NCBI GenBank assembly: GCA_965661375.1
Contig: CBFIDJ010000013.1
Span: 62,455 to 126,454 of the forward strand
DNA length: 64,000 bases
Source of the DNA: Oceanicoccus sp.
GTDB taxonomy: Bacteria; Pseudomonadota; Gammaproteobacteria; Pseudomonadales; Dasaniaceae
Direction: 5' to 3'
This document shows, one piece after another, positions 39,534-46,851 of the stretch (within the stretch, counting starts at the first letter, position 1; every line of letters begins with the position of its first letter). A model generated the notes under the pieces. It had not been told where the DNA came from, did no database searches, and saw only the letters and a list, made by a program, of their open reading frames with translations. The position numbers were made by a program, and so were the translations under genes.

Positions 39534-40922
39534 TTAGTGATTATTGCTGTGTGGCTTGCGGCGTGAGCGGCGTTTTTTCGGGGGGTGATCTTGCACCGCC
39601 TTCGCCATAGCAAGTTGCTCATCCGGGCTGCGATTCTGGTAGTCGGTCCACCATTTGGTCAGCTCGCCAAGATCTTCACCAGCCTGTTCCCTTAACAGTA
39701 GAAAGTCGTAGGCCGCACGAAAGCGGCGATTTTCAAACAGTTGCTCGGCCTTGTGGCCACCGCGACGCGGGAGTCGTAATTGCAGATCCCAGATTTCCTT
39801 CATCGGTAGGCTAAAGCGTTTAGGAATAGCCGTCGATTTTTGCTGTTCGGTAACGGCTTCCTGGGCGGCCTGATGCATGGCGGCGATTTCATTCTGTCCT
39901 TCATTACACAATTGTTGCTTACGGCGATGCACCACTGGCCATAACATGACAGCAAAGATAAAAGCCGGTGTTACAGGTTTACCCTGTCGGATTCGGATGT
40001 CAGTATTTCTCAGTCCTTGCACAATCAACTCTTCCGCCAGAGGTTCGTTAAGGTCACGATAAGTTTGTGGAAATAAGGGTTGGAATAATTGATATTTCAG
40101 TAGTAGCTCATAGACGGCTACCCCGTATCCGGACATAAGCAGTTTTAAAACCTCATCAAACATACGCGCGGCGGGAATGTCCCGCAGTGAGGCGGCGAGA
40201 CGGATGATCGGTTCTGCGGTTTTTTCATCAATCGTGAAATCCAGTTTGCCAGCAAAGCGCATTACCCGCAGCATGCGAACCGGGTCTTCCTTATAGCGGG
40301 TTTCCGGATCGCCGATAATGCGGATGACACGGTTGTGTAAATCCTGCAGTCCATTAGTGTAATCGTACACAGAAAAGTCGGCATTGGAGTAATACAGCGC
40401 GTTGATGGTTAAGTCACGCCGGATAGCGTCTTCTTCCACGGTGCCAAACACATTATCCCGTAACAGACGACCGTCTTTGGACAGTGCAGACTGTTGGTTC
40501 TTTGGGCGCTTACCTCTGGTGCTCTGCTCGGGCGACTCGTGACTGCCACGAAAGGTGGTAACTTCAATGACCTCGCGGCCAAAGCGCACATGGACAATTT
40601 TGAAGCGGCGGCCAATGATGCGAGCACTGCGAAATAGATTACGCACCTGCTCGGGAGTTGCGTTGGTGGCGATATCAAAATCTTTAGGCCTGCTGCCCAG
40701 CAACAGGTCTCGCACGCCGCCGCCTACTAGAAATCCAGCGAAGCCAGCCTGATGCAGCGTCGTCATCACCTTTAAGGCCGCGTCACTGATATGTTTGCGA
40801 GAAATACGGTGCTGGTCGCGGGGGATAATATGTGGGTCAAGATTTCTGGGGTCGAGTTTTGATACGTCGTTCCCGAGCGCTGATTTAACGCGCTTGATAG
40901 CCTGGGAAAATAGGTTGGTCAT
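39534..40922 (-). CDS. pcnB: Poly(A) polymerase I
   Basis: LVGGGVRDLLLG, PKDFDIAT, IIGRRFKIVH, RRDLTINALYY, EDPVRMLR, FRAAYDFL; ATG at 40922. Confidence 0.97.
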   Translation of the reverse strand: MTNLFSQAIKRVKSALGNDVSKLDPRNLDPHIIPRDQHRISRKHISDAALKVMTTLHQAGFAGFLVGGGVRDLLLGSRPKDFDIATNATPEQVRNLFRSARIIGRRFKIVHVRFGREVIEVTTFRGSHESPEQSTRGKRPKNQQSALSKDGRLLRDNVFGTVEEDAIRRDLTINALYYSNADFSVYDYTNGLQDLHNRVIRIIGDPETRYKEDPVRMLRVMRFAGKLDFTIDEKTAEPIIRLAASLRDIPAARMFDEVLKLLMSGYGVAVYELLLKYQLFQPLFPQTYRDLNEPLAEELIVQGLRNTDIRIRQGKPVTPAFIFAVMLWPVVHRRKQQLCNEGQNEIAAMHQAAQEAVTEQQKSTAIPKRFSLPMKEIWDLQLRLPRRGGHKAEQLFENRRFRAAYDFLLLREQAGEDLGELTKWWTDYQNRSPDEQLAMAKAVQDHPPKKRRSRRKPHSNNH

Positions 40923-41125: not shown

Positions 41126-41222
41126 AAACGGAGGTGGTGTAACGATGAAGGGAAAACGGTTGTTTTCCCCCATCCAGGTCTCGGTTTATTGTTTTTATTA
41201 GGGCATTTTTTATTCTTATTGA
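41126..41222 (-). ncRNA. crcZ: Predicted short CrcZ-like sRNA, copy B (pcnB-proximal); boundaries approximate
   Basis: Starts about 12 nt after a sigma54 -12 element; AAUAAGAAUAAAAAA and AAUAAAAACAAUAAA motifs, 18-nt core shared with copy A, hairpin at 41144-41174, ACCUCC tail; sits at the crcZ position (cbrB-pcnB). Confidence 0.72.
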
Positions 41223-41232
41223 CAGAGATGTT

Positions 41233-41248
41233 AGCAATCGCTGTGCCA
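41233..41248 (-). promoter_or_regulatory. sigma54 -24/-12 promoter B
   Basis: TGGCACAGCGATTGCT on the minus strand, near-perfect TGGCAC-N5-TTGCW. Confidence 0.88.
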
Positions 41249-41266
41249 AAAAAAATAACTCTTTAA

Positions 41267-41279
41267 AATCAGTGGCTTA
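41267..41279. promoter_or_regulatory. IHF site B
   Basis: AATCAGTGGCTTA matches WATCAR-N4-TTR, 20 bp from the -24 GG, same distance as site A. Confidence 0.65.
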
Positions 41280-41320
41280 AGGTTTTTGGTGTCAGTGGGC
41301 GGACAGTTATTTGTGGCTTT

Positions 41321-41369
41321 TGTTACGCATTCACTCGCCATTGGTTACGTTGTTGATGAATTGGTAACA
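41321..41369. promoter_or_regulatory. CbrB-type enhancer B (three GTTAC subsites)
   Basis: TGTTAC(41321)-N16-GGTTAC(41343)-N15-GTAACA(41364); TGTTAC/GTAACA is the reported CbrB site at Pseudomonas crcZ. Confidence 0.75.
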
Positions 41370-41541
41370 ACCTGTTTCAAGCTTTTAGGGTTTTAACAAC
41401 TACTTGCAATCAACAAAAAAAATGATTGAAGCAATTGCTATATCGAAGAGTGTTTGCCCAGGAAGTGATGAGCATTAGAGGTGAGATCGAGAGCCAAGGA
41501 TCAACCCTATTGTATGGTGGATTTCCGAGGTTTGTTTTTTT

Positions 41542-41595
41542 GAGATTAAGAGATAGGGACTAACGAGATTGAGAGATAGGCTCTAACGGATTGAG
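41542..41595 (+). repeat. Imperfect 23-nt tandem repeat (2 copies plus a partial)
   Basis: GAGATTAAGAGATAGGGACTAAC / GAGATTGAGAGATAGGCTCTAAC / GGATTGAG. Confidence 0.8.
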
Positions 41596-41641
41596 CAGTC
41601 GTTGGGTGGAGATTAATCAGCTTGTCAGCTCAGGGGGAAGC

Positions 41642-41754
41642 AAATAGGAGGTTTAGCAGGGTAAATTGATGAGGGAAGATTTCTCTTCCCCATCCAGGTC
41701 TCGGTGTTTTTATTATTCTATGAATATTATTTTTATATAATTATTTTTATTATG
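41642..41754 (-). ncRNA. crcZ: Predicted short CrcZ-like sRNA, copy A (cbrB-proximal); 3' end uncertain
   Basis: Starts about 12 nt after a sigma54 -12 element; several AAUAAAAA/AAUAAUAA motifs, 18-nt shared core, GAAA-tetraloop hairpin at 41668-41694, ACCUCCU tail. Confidence 0.72.
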
Positions 41755-41764
41755 TAATTGTAAT

Positions 41765-41780
41765 AGCATGTCCCGTGCCA
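41765..41780 (-). promoter_or_regulatory. sigma54 -24/-12 promoter A
   Basis: TGGCACGGGACATGCT on the minus strand (GG-N10-GC). Confidence 0.85.
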
Positions 41781-41852: not shown

Positions 41853-41901
41853 CGTTACCAATTAACTCGTCGACTGTTACGAAAAAGAAGGTTGGGTAAC
41901 G
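41853..41901. promoter_or_regulatory. CbrB-type enhancer A (three GTTAC subsites)
   Basis: CGTTAC(41853)-N16-TGTTAC(41875)-N15-GTAACG(41896). Confidence 0.75.
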
Positions 41902-42130: not shown

Positions 42131-43552
42131 CTAGGAACTGGCGGATTTGCTGCCTTTCTTTCTGGGGATGCCTAAACGCTGGCGGCGCTCCCAGAGGCAT
42201 TTCCGGCTGACCCCTAACTTGCGTGCTAATTCAGTCTCGCTCATGGAGTCCTGGTGTTCCAGAACAAAGCGCTGGAAGTAATCTTCGAGTGACAGGTCTT
42301 CAGTAGAGTCACCGCTATCCTCTTCAGCCATGGCGGGCATGGCTTGTTCAGAGGCAATGGTCCGTTTGGTGCGAATCTGGGTGACGTTGACCAGCTCCAG
42401 GTCGATATTGAGCAGGTCATTATCGATGCTGTCACTCTCAGAGAGAATCACCGCACGCTCAATGACATTTTCCATCTCGCGTACATTGCCGGGCCAGGTA
42501 TAGGTGGTAATCGCCTGAATTGCCTTTGGTGAGAAATGCATCAGAGCTTTGCCGAACTGAGCACAACGGCGCTCCAGAAGGGTTTCGGCCAGTTCCAGAA
42601 TGTCCTTGCCGCGCTCTCGCAATGCTGGCAGTTGTAACTGAATAACGTTGATTCGGTAATAGAGATCAGGGCGGAACTGGTGGTGATGGGCGAGGGATTT
42701 AAGGTTGCGATGGGTGGCGCAGATTAAACGCACATCGACCTTGCGCGATTCCACCGAGCCAATGCGGCGAATTTCATCCTCTTGAATAAAGCGCAGCAGG
42801 CGTGCCTGAGCCTCCAGAGGCAGTTCACCGATTTCGTCGAGGAACAGGGTGCCGCCATCGGCCGCTTCAATCAGCCCCATACGATTGGTATTCGCACCGG
42901 TAAAGGCACCACGTTCATAGCCGAATAGTTCAGACTCAATCAGTGTTTCTGGAATCGCGGCGCAGTTAACACTGATGAAAGGTTGCTCGGTGCGCTTGCT
43001 ATAGGCATGAACAGCCTTGGCTACCAGCTCTTTACCGGTGCCGGTTTCACCTTGAATCAGTACCGTGGTGTCCGTGGGGGCGACTTTAATCACATGATCG
43101 TAGAGTTGCATCATCGGTTGGCAGCTGCCGATCATTTCACCGAGGTGCGGGTGGCCGCGCTTGCCGGATTTACGGCGTTGTTCTTCAGGGATGTGCTGGG
43201 GCGAGTGGTTGGCGATGATGGTTGCTACCGATTCCAGCATCTCATCGTGGTCAAAGGGTTTGGCAATATAGTCTACGGCGCCGCTTTTCATGGAATCGAC
43301 GGCGGAGCGCAGGCTGGCATAGCTGGTCATAATCAGCACTGGTACATCACCTGCATGTTTGATCAGGTCAGTGCCCGGGGCACCCGGTAGTCGCAGGTCA
43401 CTGATGATCAGGTCAAAGCTGTTTAAGTCAAAATTGTCCTGGGCTTCCTGCACTGAGCCGGCTTCGCTAATCTTGTAATCGTGTCGTTCCAGCAGTTTGC
43501 GCAGGGCGCTGCGAATGACTGTTTCGTCCTCAACGATGAGAATGTGTTCCAT
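42131..43552 (-). CDS. cbrB: sigma54-dependent response regulator CbrB
   Basis: Receiver (DLRLPG), AAA+ GETGTGKE, ESELFG..RGAFTGA, DEIGE, WPGNVRE; C-terminal LSLEDYF...ETELARKLGVSRKCLWERRQRLGIPR typical of CbrB; cbrA-cbrB-pcnB order. Confidence 0.93.
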   Translation of the reverse strand: MEHILIVEDETVIRSALRKLLERHDYKISEAGSVQEAQDNFDLNSFDLIISDLRLPGAPGTDLIKHAGDVPVLIMTSYASLRSAVDSMKSGAVDYIAKPFDHDEMLESVATIIANHSPQHIPEEQRRKSGKRGHPHLGEMIGSCQPMMQLYDHVIKVAPTDTTVLIQGETGTGKELVAKAVHAYSKRTEQPFISVNCAAIPETLIESELFGYERGAFTGANTNRMGLIEAADGGTLFLDEIGELPLEAQARLLRFIQEDEIRRIGSVESRKVDVRLICATHRNLKSLAHHHQFRPDLYYRINVIQLQLPALRERGKDILELAETLLERRCAQFGKALMHFSPKAIQAITTYTWPGNVREMENVIERAVILSESDSIDNDLLNIDLELVNVTQIRTKRTIASEQAMPAMAEEDSGDSTEDLSLEDYFQRFVLEHQDSMSETELARKLGVSRKCLWERRQRLGIPRKKGSKSASS

Positions 43553-43679: not shown

Positions 43680-46640
43680 TTAGCTGATCTGTTCAACGGG
43701 TGGTCTGCTGAGCTTGAGGGTGAACCGGGTACCCCCATAAGCCTCGTCGGCAGGGCTTTCCACGCCAATAATGCCGCCAAGATCTTCAACGATGCTGTAG
43801 ACCAGTGATAACCCTAGACCGGTACCTTCTCCGGCTTCCTTGGTGGTAAAGAAGGGGTCAAAGATCTGTTCCTGATGATCCTTGCTGATGCCGGTGCCCC
43901 GGTCGGTGATAGCAATGTGAATCTGGTCCTTCACCCGCTCGCAGTGGACGGTAACCGGGCTGTTTTCCGGGCTGGCATCGCGCGCATTGCTGAGAATATT
44001 GACGAAGACCTGTAACAGACGCTGGCTATCCCCTATGGCATAGAACTGATCGTTGCAGTGATTTTGAAAGTCGACCTGTTTGGCTTCTTTGTTCAGTCGC
44101 AGCAGGTGAATGGCTTCATCTACACAGGATTGAATATGAACTGGCCGCAATTCGTGTTTATCACCCTCCGCACCGGCATGGGCAAAGTTAACCAGTGTCT
44201 GGACGATTTTTGATACCCGGTCGGTCTGTTCCAGAATTTCTTTAGCGGTGTTGAGGCTCTCGGGGTTTTCCGTGTCGTAGCGCAGGTTCTGCGCCAGGCA
44301 GGCAATGCCGGTGATCGGGTTGCCAATTTCGTGGGCCACGCCAGCCGCCAGCCGGCCGATGGAGGCCAGCCGTTCACTGTGAAGTAGTTCATCCTCCAGT
44401 AATTGCACGTCGGTGGTATCTTCCAGCACGATGACCTGGCCGTCATTGGCCTCGCCATAGGCGTTGACCGTGGTTTTGTGCAGGTTAAACCAGCGGGTAC
44501 TGCCCTCAACTTCCAGCGGCTGTTTGTAAAGGTGTGACTCGGTCTGGTCGCTGAAAGCGCCTAACAGTTTGCCCCAGGGTTGTGGCAACTTGTGCAGGTT
44601 AGAGCCGATCACCTCAAAGGTGGTGATATTGGTGAGCTGGGCGATGGTGTCATTCCACATCAAAATTTCATCATCCTCCCCCAGTGAGCAAACACCTACA
44701 GGTAAATTCTGTAATGTCTGGCGATGGTAGCGCCGCAGGTTGTCGAGATCGGCGGCAAGGCCTGTCAGGTGAACTTTATAGTTTTCCAGCTGGCCCTCAA
44801 TCATATTGATGTCTTCACTCTGGCTGTCATCCTGGCCGGCCTTATAGGGCAGTAGCTGGTTCACCATGTCATTGGCAACGGAGGGGCCAAGCAGGCCGGA
44901 TAAATTAGCTTCCAGCCGATAGCGTAGGCGGCGCAAGGCAAAGGGCCGGGTTTCATCGGCGGGTATTTTTAATTCGTAGAGGGCGCGGTCGACTTCGCGC
45001 TGGGCGGTGCGCATGCCCAATGCTGTGGCCAGTTGCTCCTTCATTTGCTCCGGGTTTTTAACACTGAGCAGGCGTCGGGTAGGCCGGCTGAGGTCATCGG
45101 TGGCGCAAACTTCGGCGGCGGCCTGTTCCTCCTCCGAGGTGGTAGTGAGTGCGGAGACAATGCCAAACACCAACAGGTTCAGGCCTAGCGCCGTCATAGC
45201 AGCAGTGCTCCACAGGTCGCCATAGGTCTGATCCAGATAGATTTTGCTGAACACGTCGGGTTTAAAGTCGCTGATAATCGGGAGTAGTAGTGTTACAAAC
45301 CAAACGCTGAAACCGGTGATCAGCCCGGCAATAAATCCCTTGCGATTGGCGCCCTGCCAATAGATGGCAGCCAGCGTTCCTGGCAGAAACTGCAGGGTGG
45401 CGATAAAGGCGGCCAGACCCAGGTTGGACAAGGCTTCACGGCCGGCAATGAAGCGGTAAAACACATAGCCCATGAGGATAATAAAAATAATCAGCACGCG
45501 GCGAATCCACAGCAGCCAGCGATAAATATCGCGGTCGCCACTGGGTCGATAAATAGGCAGAATCAAATGTTTGAGGCACATGGAGGCCAATGCCAGTGTG
45601 GTCACGATGACGGCGCTACTGGCTGCGGATAACCCCCCCACATAGACCATAACGGCGAGTAGTGGCGAATCCAGTTCCACCCCTAGAGCCAGGGTGAAGT
45701 ATTCCGGTGGCAGCGTGGTATCCAGCTTAAAGCCTGCCCACAGGATGGGCAGTACCGGCAGGCTCATCAGTAGCAGAAACAGCGGCAGTCCCCAGATGGA
45801 CCGTTGAATGGCTTCGTTGTTCGGGTTCTCGGCAAAAATCATATGGAACAAGTGCGGCATGGCGACGGCGGCGGAGAAGAAGATCAGCAGCAGTGCTCGT
45901 GCCGAGTCGTCCCGCATTGGTGAATTCAATAGCGAGAGAATTTCCGGGTGCTCGCCTAACCACTGGTCCAGTCCACCGAAGCCGCCAAACACACCAAACA
46001 CGGCGACACCGCCAGCAATCAGCATGGCGAGAAGTTTGACAATGGATTCAAAGGCAATGGCAACGACCAGACCATTGTGCCGCTCGTGGGCGGTGAGGTG
46101 GCGCGAGCCAAAGGAGATGGTAAACAGGCAGATAGCCACACAAAAAATAAAGGCCAGCTTATTTTGGTGGGTGTCACTGGTGAAGTAATTGCCGTCATTC
46201 ACCGTCAGGATATGCAGGCTATCGGCCACTGCTTGAATCTGTAGCGCGAGCAGCGGCCAAACCGCCAGCACCATAAATATGGTTATCAGCGAGCCGGCCC
46301 ACTGGCTGCGAAACCGAAAGGTGAGGATATCCGCCAGTGAGCTGTGTAAGTAGGCGCGGCTGATACGCCAGATCGGTAACAGCAGTAACGGCGCCAAAAG
46401 AAAAGTCGCCGCAACGCCCAGGTAATAGGACAAAAAACCGTAGCCGTATTCATGGGCCAGGCCGACCACACCGTAGATAGCCCAGGCACTGGCGAATACA
46501 CCCAGGGAGAGCACGTAAGTAAGGGGGTGGCGGATAATTTGTTCGGGGATGCGCCGGCGATCCGCGAGGTGAGCAATACCAAACAGGATCAGTAGGTAGG
46601 CAATACCGATGGCAAACAGCTGGGATAATTCAAAGCCCAT
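43680..46640 (-). CDS. cbrA: SLC5 (Na+/solute symporter)-PAS-histidine kinase CbrA
   Basis: About 13 TM segments of symporter type, then a linker/STAC region, PAS-like region, H-box AGVAHEIGNP, FDPFFTTK, GTGLGL; ATG at 46640. Confidence 0.93.
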   Translation of the reverse strand: MGFELSQLFAIGIAYLLILFGIAHLADRRRIPEQIIRHPLTYVLSLGVFASAWAIYGVVGLAHEYGYGFLSYYLGVAATFLLAPLLLLPIWRISRAYLHSSLADILTFRFRSQWAGSLITIFMVLAVWPLLALQIQAVADSLHILTVNDGNYFTSDTHQNKLAFIFCVAICLFTISFGSRHLTAHERHNGLVVAIAFESIVKLLAMLIAGGVAVFGVFGGFGGLDQWLGEHPEILSLLNSPMRDDSARALLLIFFSAAVAMPHLFHMIFAENPNNEAIQRSIWGLPLFLLLMSLPVLPILWAGFKLDTTLPPEYFTLALGVELDSPLLAVMVYVGGLSAASSAVIVTTLALASMCLKHLILPIYRPSGDRDIYRWLLWIRRVLIIFIILMGYVFYRFIAGREALSNLGLAAFIATLQFLPGTLAAIYWQGANRKGFIAGLITGFSVWFVTLLLPIISDFKPDVFSKIYLDQTYGDLWSTAAMTALGLNLLVFGIVSALTTTSEEEQAAAEVCATDDLSRPTRRLLSVKNPEQMKEQLATALGMRTAQREVDRALYELKIPADETRPFALRRLRYRLEANLSGLLGPSVANDMVNQLLPYKAGQDDSQSEDINMIEGQLENYKVHLTGLAADLDNLRRYHRQTLQNLPVGVCSLGEDDEILMWNDTIAQLTNITTFEVIGSNLHKLPQPWGKLLGAFSDQTESHLYKQPLEVEGSTRWFNLHKTTVNAYGEANDGQVIVLEDTTDVQLLEDELLHSERLASIGRLAAGVAHEIGNPITGIACLAQNLRYDTENPESLNTAKEILEQTDRVSKIVQTLVNFAHAGAEGDKHELRPVHIQSCVDEAIHLLRLNKEAKQVDFQNHCNDQFYAIGDSQRLLQVFVNILSNARDASPENSPVTVHCERVKDQIHIAITDRGTGISKDHQEQIFDPFFTTKEAGEGTGLGLSLVYSIVEDLGGIIGVESPADEAYGGTRFTLKLSRPPVEQIS

Positions 46641-46851
46641 TCTTGTGCTTTTCCTGTTCCGTGAGTACACGCTGACGGTGCTCACTGCTGTGGATACTCC
46701 ACCAGACCAAAATAATGGCACCAAGCCACAGGATATAGGGGCGATACCAGGCGGTGCCACCCTGTGTCACCCACTCCTGAATAGATGGCGTAAACACAAA
46801 GGTTACCAACATTAGCAATAACAGAGTGGGATTGATGTTCATCGTTGGCAC
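46630..46851 (-). CDS. cbrX: Small membrane protein CbrX, overlapping the cbrA start
   Basis: Two hydrophobic helices with a WYRPYILW motif recalled from Pseudomonas CbrX; 11-bp overlap with cbrA, consistent with translational coupling. Confidence 0.8.
   Translation of the reverse strand: MPTMNINPTLLLLMLVTFVFTPSIQEWVTQGGTAWYRPYILWLGAIILVWWSIHSSEHRQRVLTEQEKHKNGL

Follow-up and report, generated by a model that had tools for sequence, protein, structure and literature searches.

Our analyses of a 64,000-nucleotide (nt) stretch of an Oceanicoccus sp. genome (contig CBFIDJ010000013.1; hereafter the window) support the occurrence of two short RNAs, predicted on the minus strand between cbrB and pcnB and presumably under carbon-starvation control, which share a 15-nt element, RAGACCUGGRUGGGG (GAGACCUGGAUGGGG in the window), made of an unpaired core and the 5' arm of a hairpin. 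It characterises a variant of the CbrAB-controlled decoy RNAs of the CrcZ type that is specific to one clade and has not been described before. The best explanation overall, to which we give a probability of roughly one half, is that of a CrcZ-type family of Hfq decoys particular to this clade, with a seed-like core, a 3'-terminal hairpin and hfq itself as a candidate target.

The cascade formed by CbrAB, CrcZ and Hfq/Crc is the textbook case of 'reverse' carbon catabolite repression. In the main review of the field, CbrAB/CrcZ are described only in Pseudomonas and Azotobacter (PMC8871633), and our literature searches retrieved nothing on such RNAs in the taxa that carry the element. The locus examined here extends the range of the system: in Oceanicoccus, Dasania, Spongiibacteraceae and Halieaceae, all of them marine heterotrophs of ecological importance, a syntenic and orthologous CbrAB module is combined with an RNA of different build.

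The 18-mer CCCCATCCAGGTCTCGGT occurs exactly twice in the window, at 41168-41185 and 41688-41705 (no match in 100 shuffles), and at no further site in the 4.3-Mb genome when up to two mismatches are allowed. On the minus strand it reads ACCGAGACCUGGAUGGGG, the last seven bases of which start a bulged hairpin in both copies, as an earlier model-made reading of the letters alone (the sequence-only reading) had described: GAUG-GGGAAGA-[GAAA]-UCUUCCC-U-CAUC in the cbrB-proximal copy and GAUG-G-GGGAAAAC-[AACC]-GUUUUCCC-U-U-CAUC in the pcnB-proximal one. The two hairpins have folding energies of -15.1 and -15.2 kcal/mol (z about -2), and the same reading's proposal of two RNAs on the minus strand is likewise supported. 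The first 11 bases, ACCGAGACCUG, are unpaired, including in folds of the whole predicted transcripts, and in none of these folds does the core pair with the 5' end or the tail of its own RNA. No Rfam family reached its gathering threshold in the window, and permissive scans of this region returned chance-level matches only.

The sequence-only reading had named a core confined to this genome as what would speak against a function for it, and the core is clearly conserved elsewhere, as seen within the family, with an order-wide model and in scans of named genomes. All 12 high-quality genomes of the family have the element as a tandem pair, spaced by a few hundred bases, as do 18 of the 20 genomes sampled, which represent three genera. 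It is always preceded by an A-rich (ARN) tract; in the family, each copy follows a sigma-54 promoter and 47-83 nt of (AAU/AAC)n. Of the 11 unpaired nucleotides that had been taken as perfectly conserved, GAGACCUG (RAGRCCUG across families) is indeed retained, whereas the leading ACC varies freely in relatives, so that 15 nt, and not 18, are kept. The two paralogues are orthologously distinct throughout the family, the cbrB-proximal type being GAUGGGGAAGA-GNNA-UCUUCCC(U)CAUC and the pcnB-proximal type GAUGGGGGAAAAC-loop-GUUUUCCCU(U)CAUC.

These observations bear on whether the identity of the two copies is merely a by-product of recent duplication or gene conversion and holds no functional information, a reading to which we attach almost no credence. 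It would accommodate the three nt (ACC) by which the identity runs past the conserved element in the window, and a family genome, G013, in which both paralogues bear the same G-to-A change hints at occasional conversion. Against it, the paralogues remain orthologously distinct across a family of three genera, and about ten families keep the element, with free divergence of the adjacent loop, upper stem, A-rich tract and downstream spacer. Because the orthology of the two types is family-wide, recent gene conversion is excluded as the main cause of the identity, which is the 15-nt conserved element plus 3 nt agreeing by chance or through local conversion. The G013 change itself (locus L034, core GAGACCUAG) is either a concerted change, that is gene conversion, or the product of co-selection; the same variant is fixed in family f40, and the hfq leader of G013 shows no compensation for it.

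Beyond the family, a covariance model built from one hairpin type found the module in 52 of the 301 genomes sampled in the order, which represent about ten families and 18 of 134 genera. When named genomes were scanned with a pattern, carriers were identified in Oceanicoccus, Dasania, Spongiibacter, Zhongshania, Neomelitea, Haliea, Halioglobus, Parahaliea, Kineobactrum and their relatives, the carrier groups including Spongiibacteraceae, Halieaceae and allied marine families. Full-module contigs (L116, L151, L154 and others) were also found in metagenome-assembled genomes labelled Verrucomicrobiaceae, Bacteroidia and similar, probably through mis-binning or mislabelling. In a Dasania-type genome, a third perfect GAGACCUGGAUGGGG is found at a locus unrelated to this one (L003, G001:C1:587910-587927), where it has no ARN tract, sigma-54 promoter or hairpin of the modelled type; it is either a chance match, about 0.16 being expected over 20 genomes, or a remnant.

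Within the module, conservation is concentrated in the unpaired core. Among 108 distinct copies, the columns R-A-G-A-C-C-U-G-G are the most conserved of the RNA, with G18, C20, C21, U22 and G24 at 100%, above the positions of the stem, and the 5' side of the basal stem, G-R-U-G, is invariant even where its partner is unpaired (at one position, in 25 of 114 rows). Many of the 108 copies were gathered through a pattern that contains the core, which inflates these percentages and counts against reading them at face value; the family-level and model-based collections, which are less biased, show the same conservation. This is well beyond what an A-rich decoy needs, as the sequence-only reading had argued in stating that a pure Hfq sponge would not require the core. 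The unpaired core very likely has a sequence-specific function. RAGACCUG is both single-stranded in the folds and, with the ascertainment bias just described, the most conserved segment, as is to be expected of a seed; that the function is base pairing we regard as an even bet.

A different use of the same nucleotides would be as a mimic of a translation-initiation region, the ARN tract being followed by a Shine-Dalgarno (SD)-like tetramer (GAGA, AAGG, UGGA, AAGA or GAGG), a 5-nt spacer and AUG or GUG. The RNA would then copy the architecture of messengers repressed by Hfq/Crc, or recruit a 30S subunit or ribosome that opens the hairpin. Of 114 copies, 113 have AUG or GUG after CCUGG, the tetramer before it is purine-rich throughout, though variable in sequence, and the invariance of G-R-U-G independently of pairing would agree with such a role. 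However, the way in which the sequences were gathered in part enforced RUG, an invariant CCUGG is unexpected in the spacer of a ribosome-binding site, the AUG lies within the stem, and the open reading frame (ORF) that it begins varies in length between 4 and over 50 codons, no differently from the other frames, with no peptide conserved beyond what the stem dictates. We consider this reading quite improbable. A small protein translated from the core AUG was rejected as a candidate on the same variation in ORF length and on differences in loop length, which shift the frame.

The assignment of the RNAs to the CrcZ type is based on their position, promoters, composition and genomic partners (Table 1). 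They lie directly downstream of cbrB and upstream of pcnB, the minus-strand gene order being gluQRS, cbrA-like, cbrB, RNA-1, RNA-2, pcnB, folK, a deoxynucleoside kinase gene, panB and panC, which corresponds to the cbrA-cbrB-crcZ-pcnB arrangement of Pseudomonas. The CbrB protein is 65.6% identical to the CbrB encoded beside a canonical crcZ in a Pseudomonadaceae genome, and the two are reciprocal best hits (548 bits, versus 285 for the next paralogue in the genome of the window). The -24/-12 promoter of RNA-1 is kept upstream in all genomes of the family. Both enhancers, which read (T)GTTAC / GTAAC[A/C] / GTAAC[G/A], follow the layout TGTTAC / GTAACA / GTAAC(g) with a spacing of 12-16 nt and are predicted to comprise CbrB subsites, by comparison with the consensus of the F1/R1/R2 subsites defined for CbrB of P. 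putida (PMC6296734); for both RNAs, exactly 73 nt separate the last subsite from the -24 box downstream of it, and the enhancer of RNA-2 is conserved within the genus. Two or three blocks of (AAU/AAC)n, 47-83 nt in total, are present in every copy and unpaired in full-length folds.

On the protein side, the genome of the window encodes Hfq and a second ExoIII-like protein which lacks the nuclease signature and whose best match in the PDB is P. aeruginosa Crc (4jg3; full length, E 6e-69). This protein is a probable Crc, as judged from a modest margin of 235.7 bits to 4jg3 against 218.5 bits for the best ExoIII. With Hfq, a probable Crc and CbrAB in one genome, the protein side of a circuit of CbrAB, decoy RNA and Hfq-Crc is complete. 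We conclude that the twin RNAs are very likely CbrB- and sigma-54-dependent small RNAs (sRNAs) that bind Hfq.

The twin RNAs nevertheless differ from canonical CrcZ in their build. The CrcZ model (RF01675, gathering threshold 95 bits) gave only 11.6 bits (E 2.4) at 41667-41747 and no match in the whole genome of the window or in any genome of its family, whereas the same model scores 300-368 bits in Pseudomonadaceae genomes of the same order; in three genomes it co-locates weakly with the module, end to end, at 22-25 bits, far under the cut-off. Similarly to CrcZ, CrcY and CrcX of Pseudomonas and Azotobacter, the twin RNAs combine genomic position, a sigma-54 promoter, CbrB subsites of the F1/R1/R2 type, A-rich ARN ('CA') motifs and a G-rich end hairpin in genomes with Hfq and Crc, commonly as two paralogous RNAs. 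In contrast, they are predicted to span about 80-100 nt instead of about 400 nt, concentrate their ARN blocks at the 5' end, stand in tandem at one locus with an enhancer each, carry RAGACCUGGRUGGGG, which is absent from canonical CrcZ sequences, and occur outside Pseudomonadaceae.

Table 1. Features of the twin-RNA locus, in window positions; the start of RNA-1 was placed from its promoter and its 3' limit from the end of conservation across 13 Oceanicoccus genomes
Feature	Positions	Strand	Remarks
Predicted RNA-1, cbrB-proximal, about 87-97 nt	41658..41754	-	three ARN blocks, core, hairpin, short tail CAUCAAUUUAC
15-nt element GAGACCUGGAUGGGG of RNA-1	41688..41702	-	41695-41702 unpaired, GAGACCUG; 41688-41694 hairpin 5' arm
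RNA-1 hairpin GAUGGGGAAGA-GAAA-UCUUCCC(U)CAUC	41668..41694	-	fold and covariation
Sigma-54 promoter of RNA-1, TGGCACgggacATGCT	41765..41780	-	-24/-12 type
CbrB-type enhancer of RNA-1 (predicted)	41853..41900	-	GTTAC 41900-41896, GTAACA 41880-41875, GTAACG 41858-41853
Predicted RNA-2, pcnB-proximal, about 79-88 nt	41135..41222	-	two ARN blocks, core, hairpin, short tail CAUCGUUAC
15-nt element GAGACCUGGAUGGGG of RNA-2	41168..41182	-	41175-41182 unpaired; 41168-41174 hairpin 5' arm
RNA-2 hairpin GAUGGGGGAAAAC-AACC-GUUUUCCCU(U)CAUC	41144..41174	-	fold and covariation
Sigma-54 promoter of RNA-2, TGGCACagcgaTTGCT	41233..41248	-	
CbrB-type enhancer of RNA-2 (predicted)	41321..41369	-	TGTTAC 41369-41364, GTAACC 41348-41343, GTAACA 41326-41321
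cbrB orthologue, sigma-54-dependent (NtrC-type) response regulator	42131..43552	-	
cbrA-like sensor kinase	43680..46760	-	13 hydrophobic segments, then PAS-HisKA-HATPase
pcnB (poly(A) polymerase)	39534..40922	-	downstream neighbour, as in Pseudomonas cbrB-crcZ-pcnB

The compensatory changes that the sequence-only reading had seen between the two hairpins amount, in the window alone, to one G-C to A-U exchange and one extra pair, but real covariation appears once homologs are added. In an alignment of 125 model matches, 97.3% of the cells are paired and 8 of 13 pairs show double-sided changes, a level reached by none of 500 shuffles, and pairing collapses when the registers of the alignment are slid. 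The alignment was made with the covariance model, being fitted to it and favouring structure; the upper stems, however, differ between families (GGGGAAAGAA/UUCUUUCCCC, GGGGUGGGC/GCUCCCCC and GGGGAAGC/GCUUCCC, among others) too much for the covariation to be an alignment artefact. There is little doubt that the hairpin is a real RNA structure.

Where the RNAs end is indicated by the extent of conservation. In a comparison of 13 Oceanicoccus genomes, conserved sequence runs from the promoter through the ARN tract, the core and the hairpin to about 10 bases past it; an unconserved spacer of about 220 nt, variable in length, comes next, before the CbrB subsites of the following RNA. In several other families, the hairpin precedes a clear U-run (e.g. 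CCCUUUUUACUUUCU and CCCUUAUUUUUCC). Because conservation stops there and U-runs occur elsewhere, we read the hairpin as the 3'-terminal structure of RNAs of about 80-100 nt, and we favour, with some reservation, its being the RNA 3' end. Several observations account for that reservation. The tails after the hairpins in the window are CAUCAAUUUAC and CAUCGUUACAC, and a consensus scan called no terminator there; Oceanicoccus tails are U-poor, with 2-6 U in 10 nt, and consensus terminators are not enriched in this region of the genome. Besides that, in Halieaceae-type loci a second module follows the first after 200-480 nt with no sigma-54 promoter of its own, so that the hairpin may be internal there and not always terminating. 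More generally, the start sites, the 3' ends and the expression of the RNAs are all inferred from sequence.

In four such Halieaceae-type loci (L061, L094, L113 and L121), the first core is UGGACCUGGAUGGGG and the second GAGACCUGGAUGGGG, with sequence of ordinary composition between them. Such a locus possibly encodes a single RNA of about 450-550 nt, intermediate between canonical CrcZ and the twin short RNAs; the unit of ARN tract, core and hairpin behaves as a reiterated module.

If the hairpin ends the RNA, the entire element could in principle be a signal for 3'-end formation or stability and nothing more, acting as an intrinsic terminator homologous to the G-rich one of CrcZ, a processing site, for instance one that frees modules from a longer precursor, or a protection against nucleases, with no role in trans. 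The end of conservation about 10 nt past the hairpin and the U-rich tails of several families agree with this, as do the end of canonical CrcZ, where a last ARN block, a conserved linker AGCACGCA, a G-rich hairpin and an imperfect U tract follow one another, and the weak co-location of the CrcZ model with the module mentioned above. Yet sequence upstream of intrinsic terminators is not normally 100% conserved across families, the stem tolerates many changes that the unpaired segment does not, and the complementarity of the hfq leader described below would be left unexplained. We therefore hold an exclusive 3'-end role to be improbable.

If the core is instead a base-pairing seed, as the sequence-only reading had suggested, a complementary target should exist. 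Support for this suggestion is divided: a conserved complementary block in the hfq leader speaks for it, whereas no target stands out in the genome of the window and the covariation of core and leader is marginal. In that genome, 8-11-mers complementary to the core are not enriched and few lie near start codons; a duplex-energy scan of 3,679 initiation regions found none outstanding, 5-14% of shuffled seeds doing equally well, and its top matches were unrelated housekeeping genes. These results weigh against a seed. Of five regulatory leaders tried in the same genome, only that of hfq matched, with UUAGGUCUCA at -56 (8 base pairs, bp); the crc, cbrA, cbrB and pcnB leaders showed no notable complementarity to the core.

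Across genomes, the hfq leader contains a conserved complementary block, UUAGGUCUCAU, in three families (f1, that of the window, f37 and f39) and differently complementary sites in two others (f3 and f40). Of 19 f1 genomes, 18 have GGUCUCA(U/C) at 51-62 nt before the hfq start, with a U/A-rich run, a conserved GGCCCCAUUUGGGCU hairpin and the SD sequence after it; the block is also found in both genomes of f37, in both of f39 and in one genome of f3. The hfq gene itself lies 175 nt downstream of miaA. In the genome of the window, the leader (contig C4, about 181,250-181,370, outside the window; L199-L217 across genomes) reads, in order, a -10-like TATAAC, GGUCUCAU, the U/A-rich run, the GGCCCCAUUUGGGCU hairpin and the SD AAGGAG; this architecture is conserved, and several families keep its hairpin and U-run whether or not the GGUCUC block is present. 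In several genomes of the genus (G005, G007, G009, G012, G013, G016, G017 and G018), hfq has a second, divergent paralogue with 64-71% identity to the main Hfq, the genome of the window having one hfq only.

Variants of sRNA and leader are matched by lineage. Within one genus, G057 combines AAGACC in the sRNA with GGUCUU in the leader (14-16 bp in all) and G105 GAGACC with GGUCUC. The flanks likewise correspond in G103 (GU|GAGACC with GGUCUC|AC), in the family of the window (AU|GAGACC with GGUCUC|AU) and in G016 (AUU|GAGACC with GGUCUC|AAU), as do the variant CUGGGU and leader ACCCAG in f3, and GACGAGA with UCUCGUC and the variant CUA with UAG in f40. In 8 genomes, the hfq leader ranks first among 135 natural windows, and in most others of f1, f3 and f40 it is within the top 2-8%; the mean pairing energy is -13.6 kcal/mol for real leaders and -9.9 kcal/mol for reversed ones. 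Reversed leaders and natural windows served as null models, a shuffled-leader null destroying the U-runs and thereby overstating significance. In the control families with canonical CrcZ, the hfq leader has no such site. Two other leaders, those of rpsA and etfB, were rejected as conserved targets, their sites occurring only in G000 or in 3 of 9 genomes of the family.

In predicted folds of the leader, the (G)UCUC block pairs with the SD of hfq; given this pairing, the SD-like core of the sRNA could compete with an anti-SD element. This is formally similar to DsrA and RprA, which activate rpoS by an anti-antisense mechanism, in that the core is predicted to compete with an intramolecular pairing of anti-SD and SD.

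A number of observations weigh against hfq as the target, or against its being the whole explanation. The pairing is weakest in the genome of the window itself, where it does not exceed chance (8 bp, -13.4 kcal/mol, p 0.31 and 0.23). In a fixed-register alignment of sRNAs and leaders, the six central pairs never vary, and covariation in the flanks is marginal (0.078 versus 0.066, reached by 40 of 500 shuffles; 11 double-sided cells versus 6.6, reached by 11 of 500), in an alignment that was anchored on the complementary block and whose genomes are phylogenetically non-independent. The block could be conserved for promoter or 5'-end reasons, the -10-like TATAAC lying just upstream, and pairing with hfq explains the invariant UGGRUG only in part. 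Finally, families f7, f14, f30 and f53 keep the core and have no detectable site in the hfq leader, so hfq is not the sole or general reason for the conservation of the core. We regard hfq as a credible, lineage-restricted candidate target, not a demonstrated one; that it is one of the targets in this lineage seems to us possible, with the odds somewhat against it.

That the core is kept in families with no hfq site would agree with core and hairpin forming a protein-recognition module, in which the hairpin would sit on the proximal face of Hfq and RAGACCUGGRUG would be read by the Hfq rim, by Crc or by a protein of the CsrA/RsmA type, building a decoy complex of higher affinity or higher order. 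The invariance of G-R-U-G in the absence of pairing is what direct read-out predicts, and CUGGAUG resembles the GGA sites of CsrA/RsmA. The occurrence of the unit of ARN tract, core and hairpin twice per locus, apparently on one transcript, in Halieaceae-type genomes also fits, and cryo-electron microscopy is reported to show that hairpins beside ARN tracts are recurrently bound by the proximal face of Hfq and shape Hfq-Crc assemblies (PMC9890229), a docking that the module would match. Nevertheless, the known preferences of Hfq and Crc are for ARN, U-tracts and UA-rich sequence, with no known surface for a motif containing G and C; canonical CrcZ works with no such core; there is one GGA per RNA where CsrA decoys carry many; and the block of the hfq leader and the lineage-matched variants remain unaccounted for. 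We consider the protein-recognition module unlikely, though not negligibly so.

Returning to a decoy with a seed-like core, the explanation that we prefer may be set out as follows. RAGACCUGGRUGGGG would define a clade-specific family of short, ARN-rich sRNAs driven by sigma-54 and CbrB at the position of crcZ. Their unstructured 5' tract, with its two or three blocks of (AAU/AAC)n, would bind the distal face of Hfq, together with Crc, and titrate Hfq as CrcZ does. The unpaired RAGACCUG would serve as a sequence-specific recognition element, most likely a base-pairing seed, and the GGGG...CCC(C) hairpin, which uses the remainder of the element as its 5' arm, as a 3'-terminal terminator or protective end and possibly as a dock for the proximal face of Hfq. 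The best candidate target would be the (U)UAGGUCUCAU block that is conserved some 55 nt before the start codon of hfq and is predicted to pair with the hfq SD; through this pairing, the decoy RNAs would also adjust the synthesis of Hfq. The analyses show that the sequence is conserved, that the hairpin covaries, how promoters and enhancers are laid out, that the locus is syntenic, that Hfq, Crc and CbrAB are encoded and that complementarity to the hfq leader is conserved; the titration of Hfq, the 3' end, pairing in vivo and the direction of the effect are what we infer here. The full scheme, in which a CbrAB-controlled decoy pairs through its SD-like core with the anti-SD block of hfq and establishes a sponge-plus-seed feedback on Hfq in several families of abundant marine Gammaproteobacteria, is a tentative proposal that we hold to be rather unlikely as a whole.

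Parallels for the parts of this design exist in other bacteria. The Qrr1-5 RNAs of Vibrio are short paralogous sRNAs, Hfq-dependent and transcribed with sigma-54 and the NtrC-family activator LuxO, in which an invariant single-stranded stretch beside the terminator hairpin is the seed. The twin RNAs resemble them as sibling short sRNAs, each driven by sigma-54 and an NtrC-family activator and each with an invariant single-stranded stretch by a hairpin, but they share no sequence or model similarity with them, depend on CbrB and not LuxO, belong to another physiology and carry long ARN decoy tracts, which Qrr RNAs lack. Similarly, the class II sRNAs of enterobacteria (ChiX, MgrR and CyaR) combine a distal-face ARN motif with a terminator and a seed that is single-stranded; they compete strongly for Hfq and act on targets with U/A-rich rim-binding tracts beside the pairing site. 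The succession of ARN tract, single-stranded segment and hairpin is the same here, and the hfq leader is also U/A-rich by its site; in contrast, the sequences are unrelated, the ARN tract, with its 2-3 blocks of about 15 nt, greatly exceeds theirs in length, and Oceanicoccus has a weak U tail. The precedent for a trans-acting sRNA of the hfq leader is GssA of P. aeruginosa, for which pairing with that leader and an altered translation of Hfq have been proposed (PMC9973299). GssA differs in not being a CbrB-dependent decoy and in pairing at the ribosome-binding site, where the block considered here lies upstream.

If the core is a seed, decoy activity and base pairing would be combined in one sRNA, and if the hfq leader is its target, one signal would control the availability of Hfq at two levels. 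The locus also offers mechanistic studies a natural 'minimal CrcZ', about 90 nt in length.

Three other features of the locus were noted. The longest ORF of the cbrA-like gene begins with GTG and encodes 1026 amino acids (aa), the first 40 of which look non-native (window 46640-46760); the true start is probably the ATG 40 codons inside the ORF (MGFELSQLF...), just ahead of the first hydrophobic segment, which gives about 986 aa, a length near that of CbrA in Pseudomonas. The minus strand at 41440-41657, which separates the RNA-1 hairpin from the RNA-2 enhancer, is C-rich and G-poor, with CCUCC-like 'anti-SD' motifs; neither its sequence nor its length is conserved across the 13 Oceanicoccus genomes (399-692 nt from core to core), and it probably represents spacer sequence or a read-through tail devoid of function. 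An AU-rich inverted repeat, GCAAUUGCUUCAAUCA-U8-GUUGAUUGCAAG, is placed at 41392-41444, immediately upstream of the enhancer of RNA-2; it is partly conserved in the genus and could be a weak bidirectional terminator or a site for an IHF-like protein.

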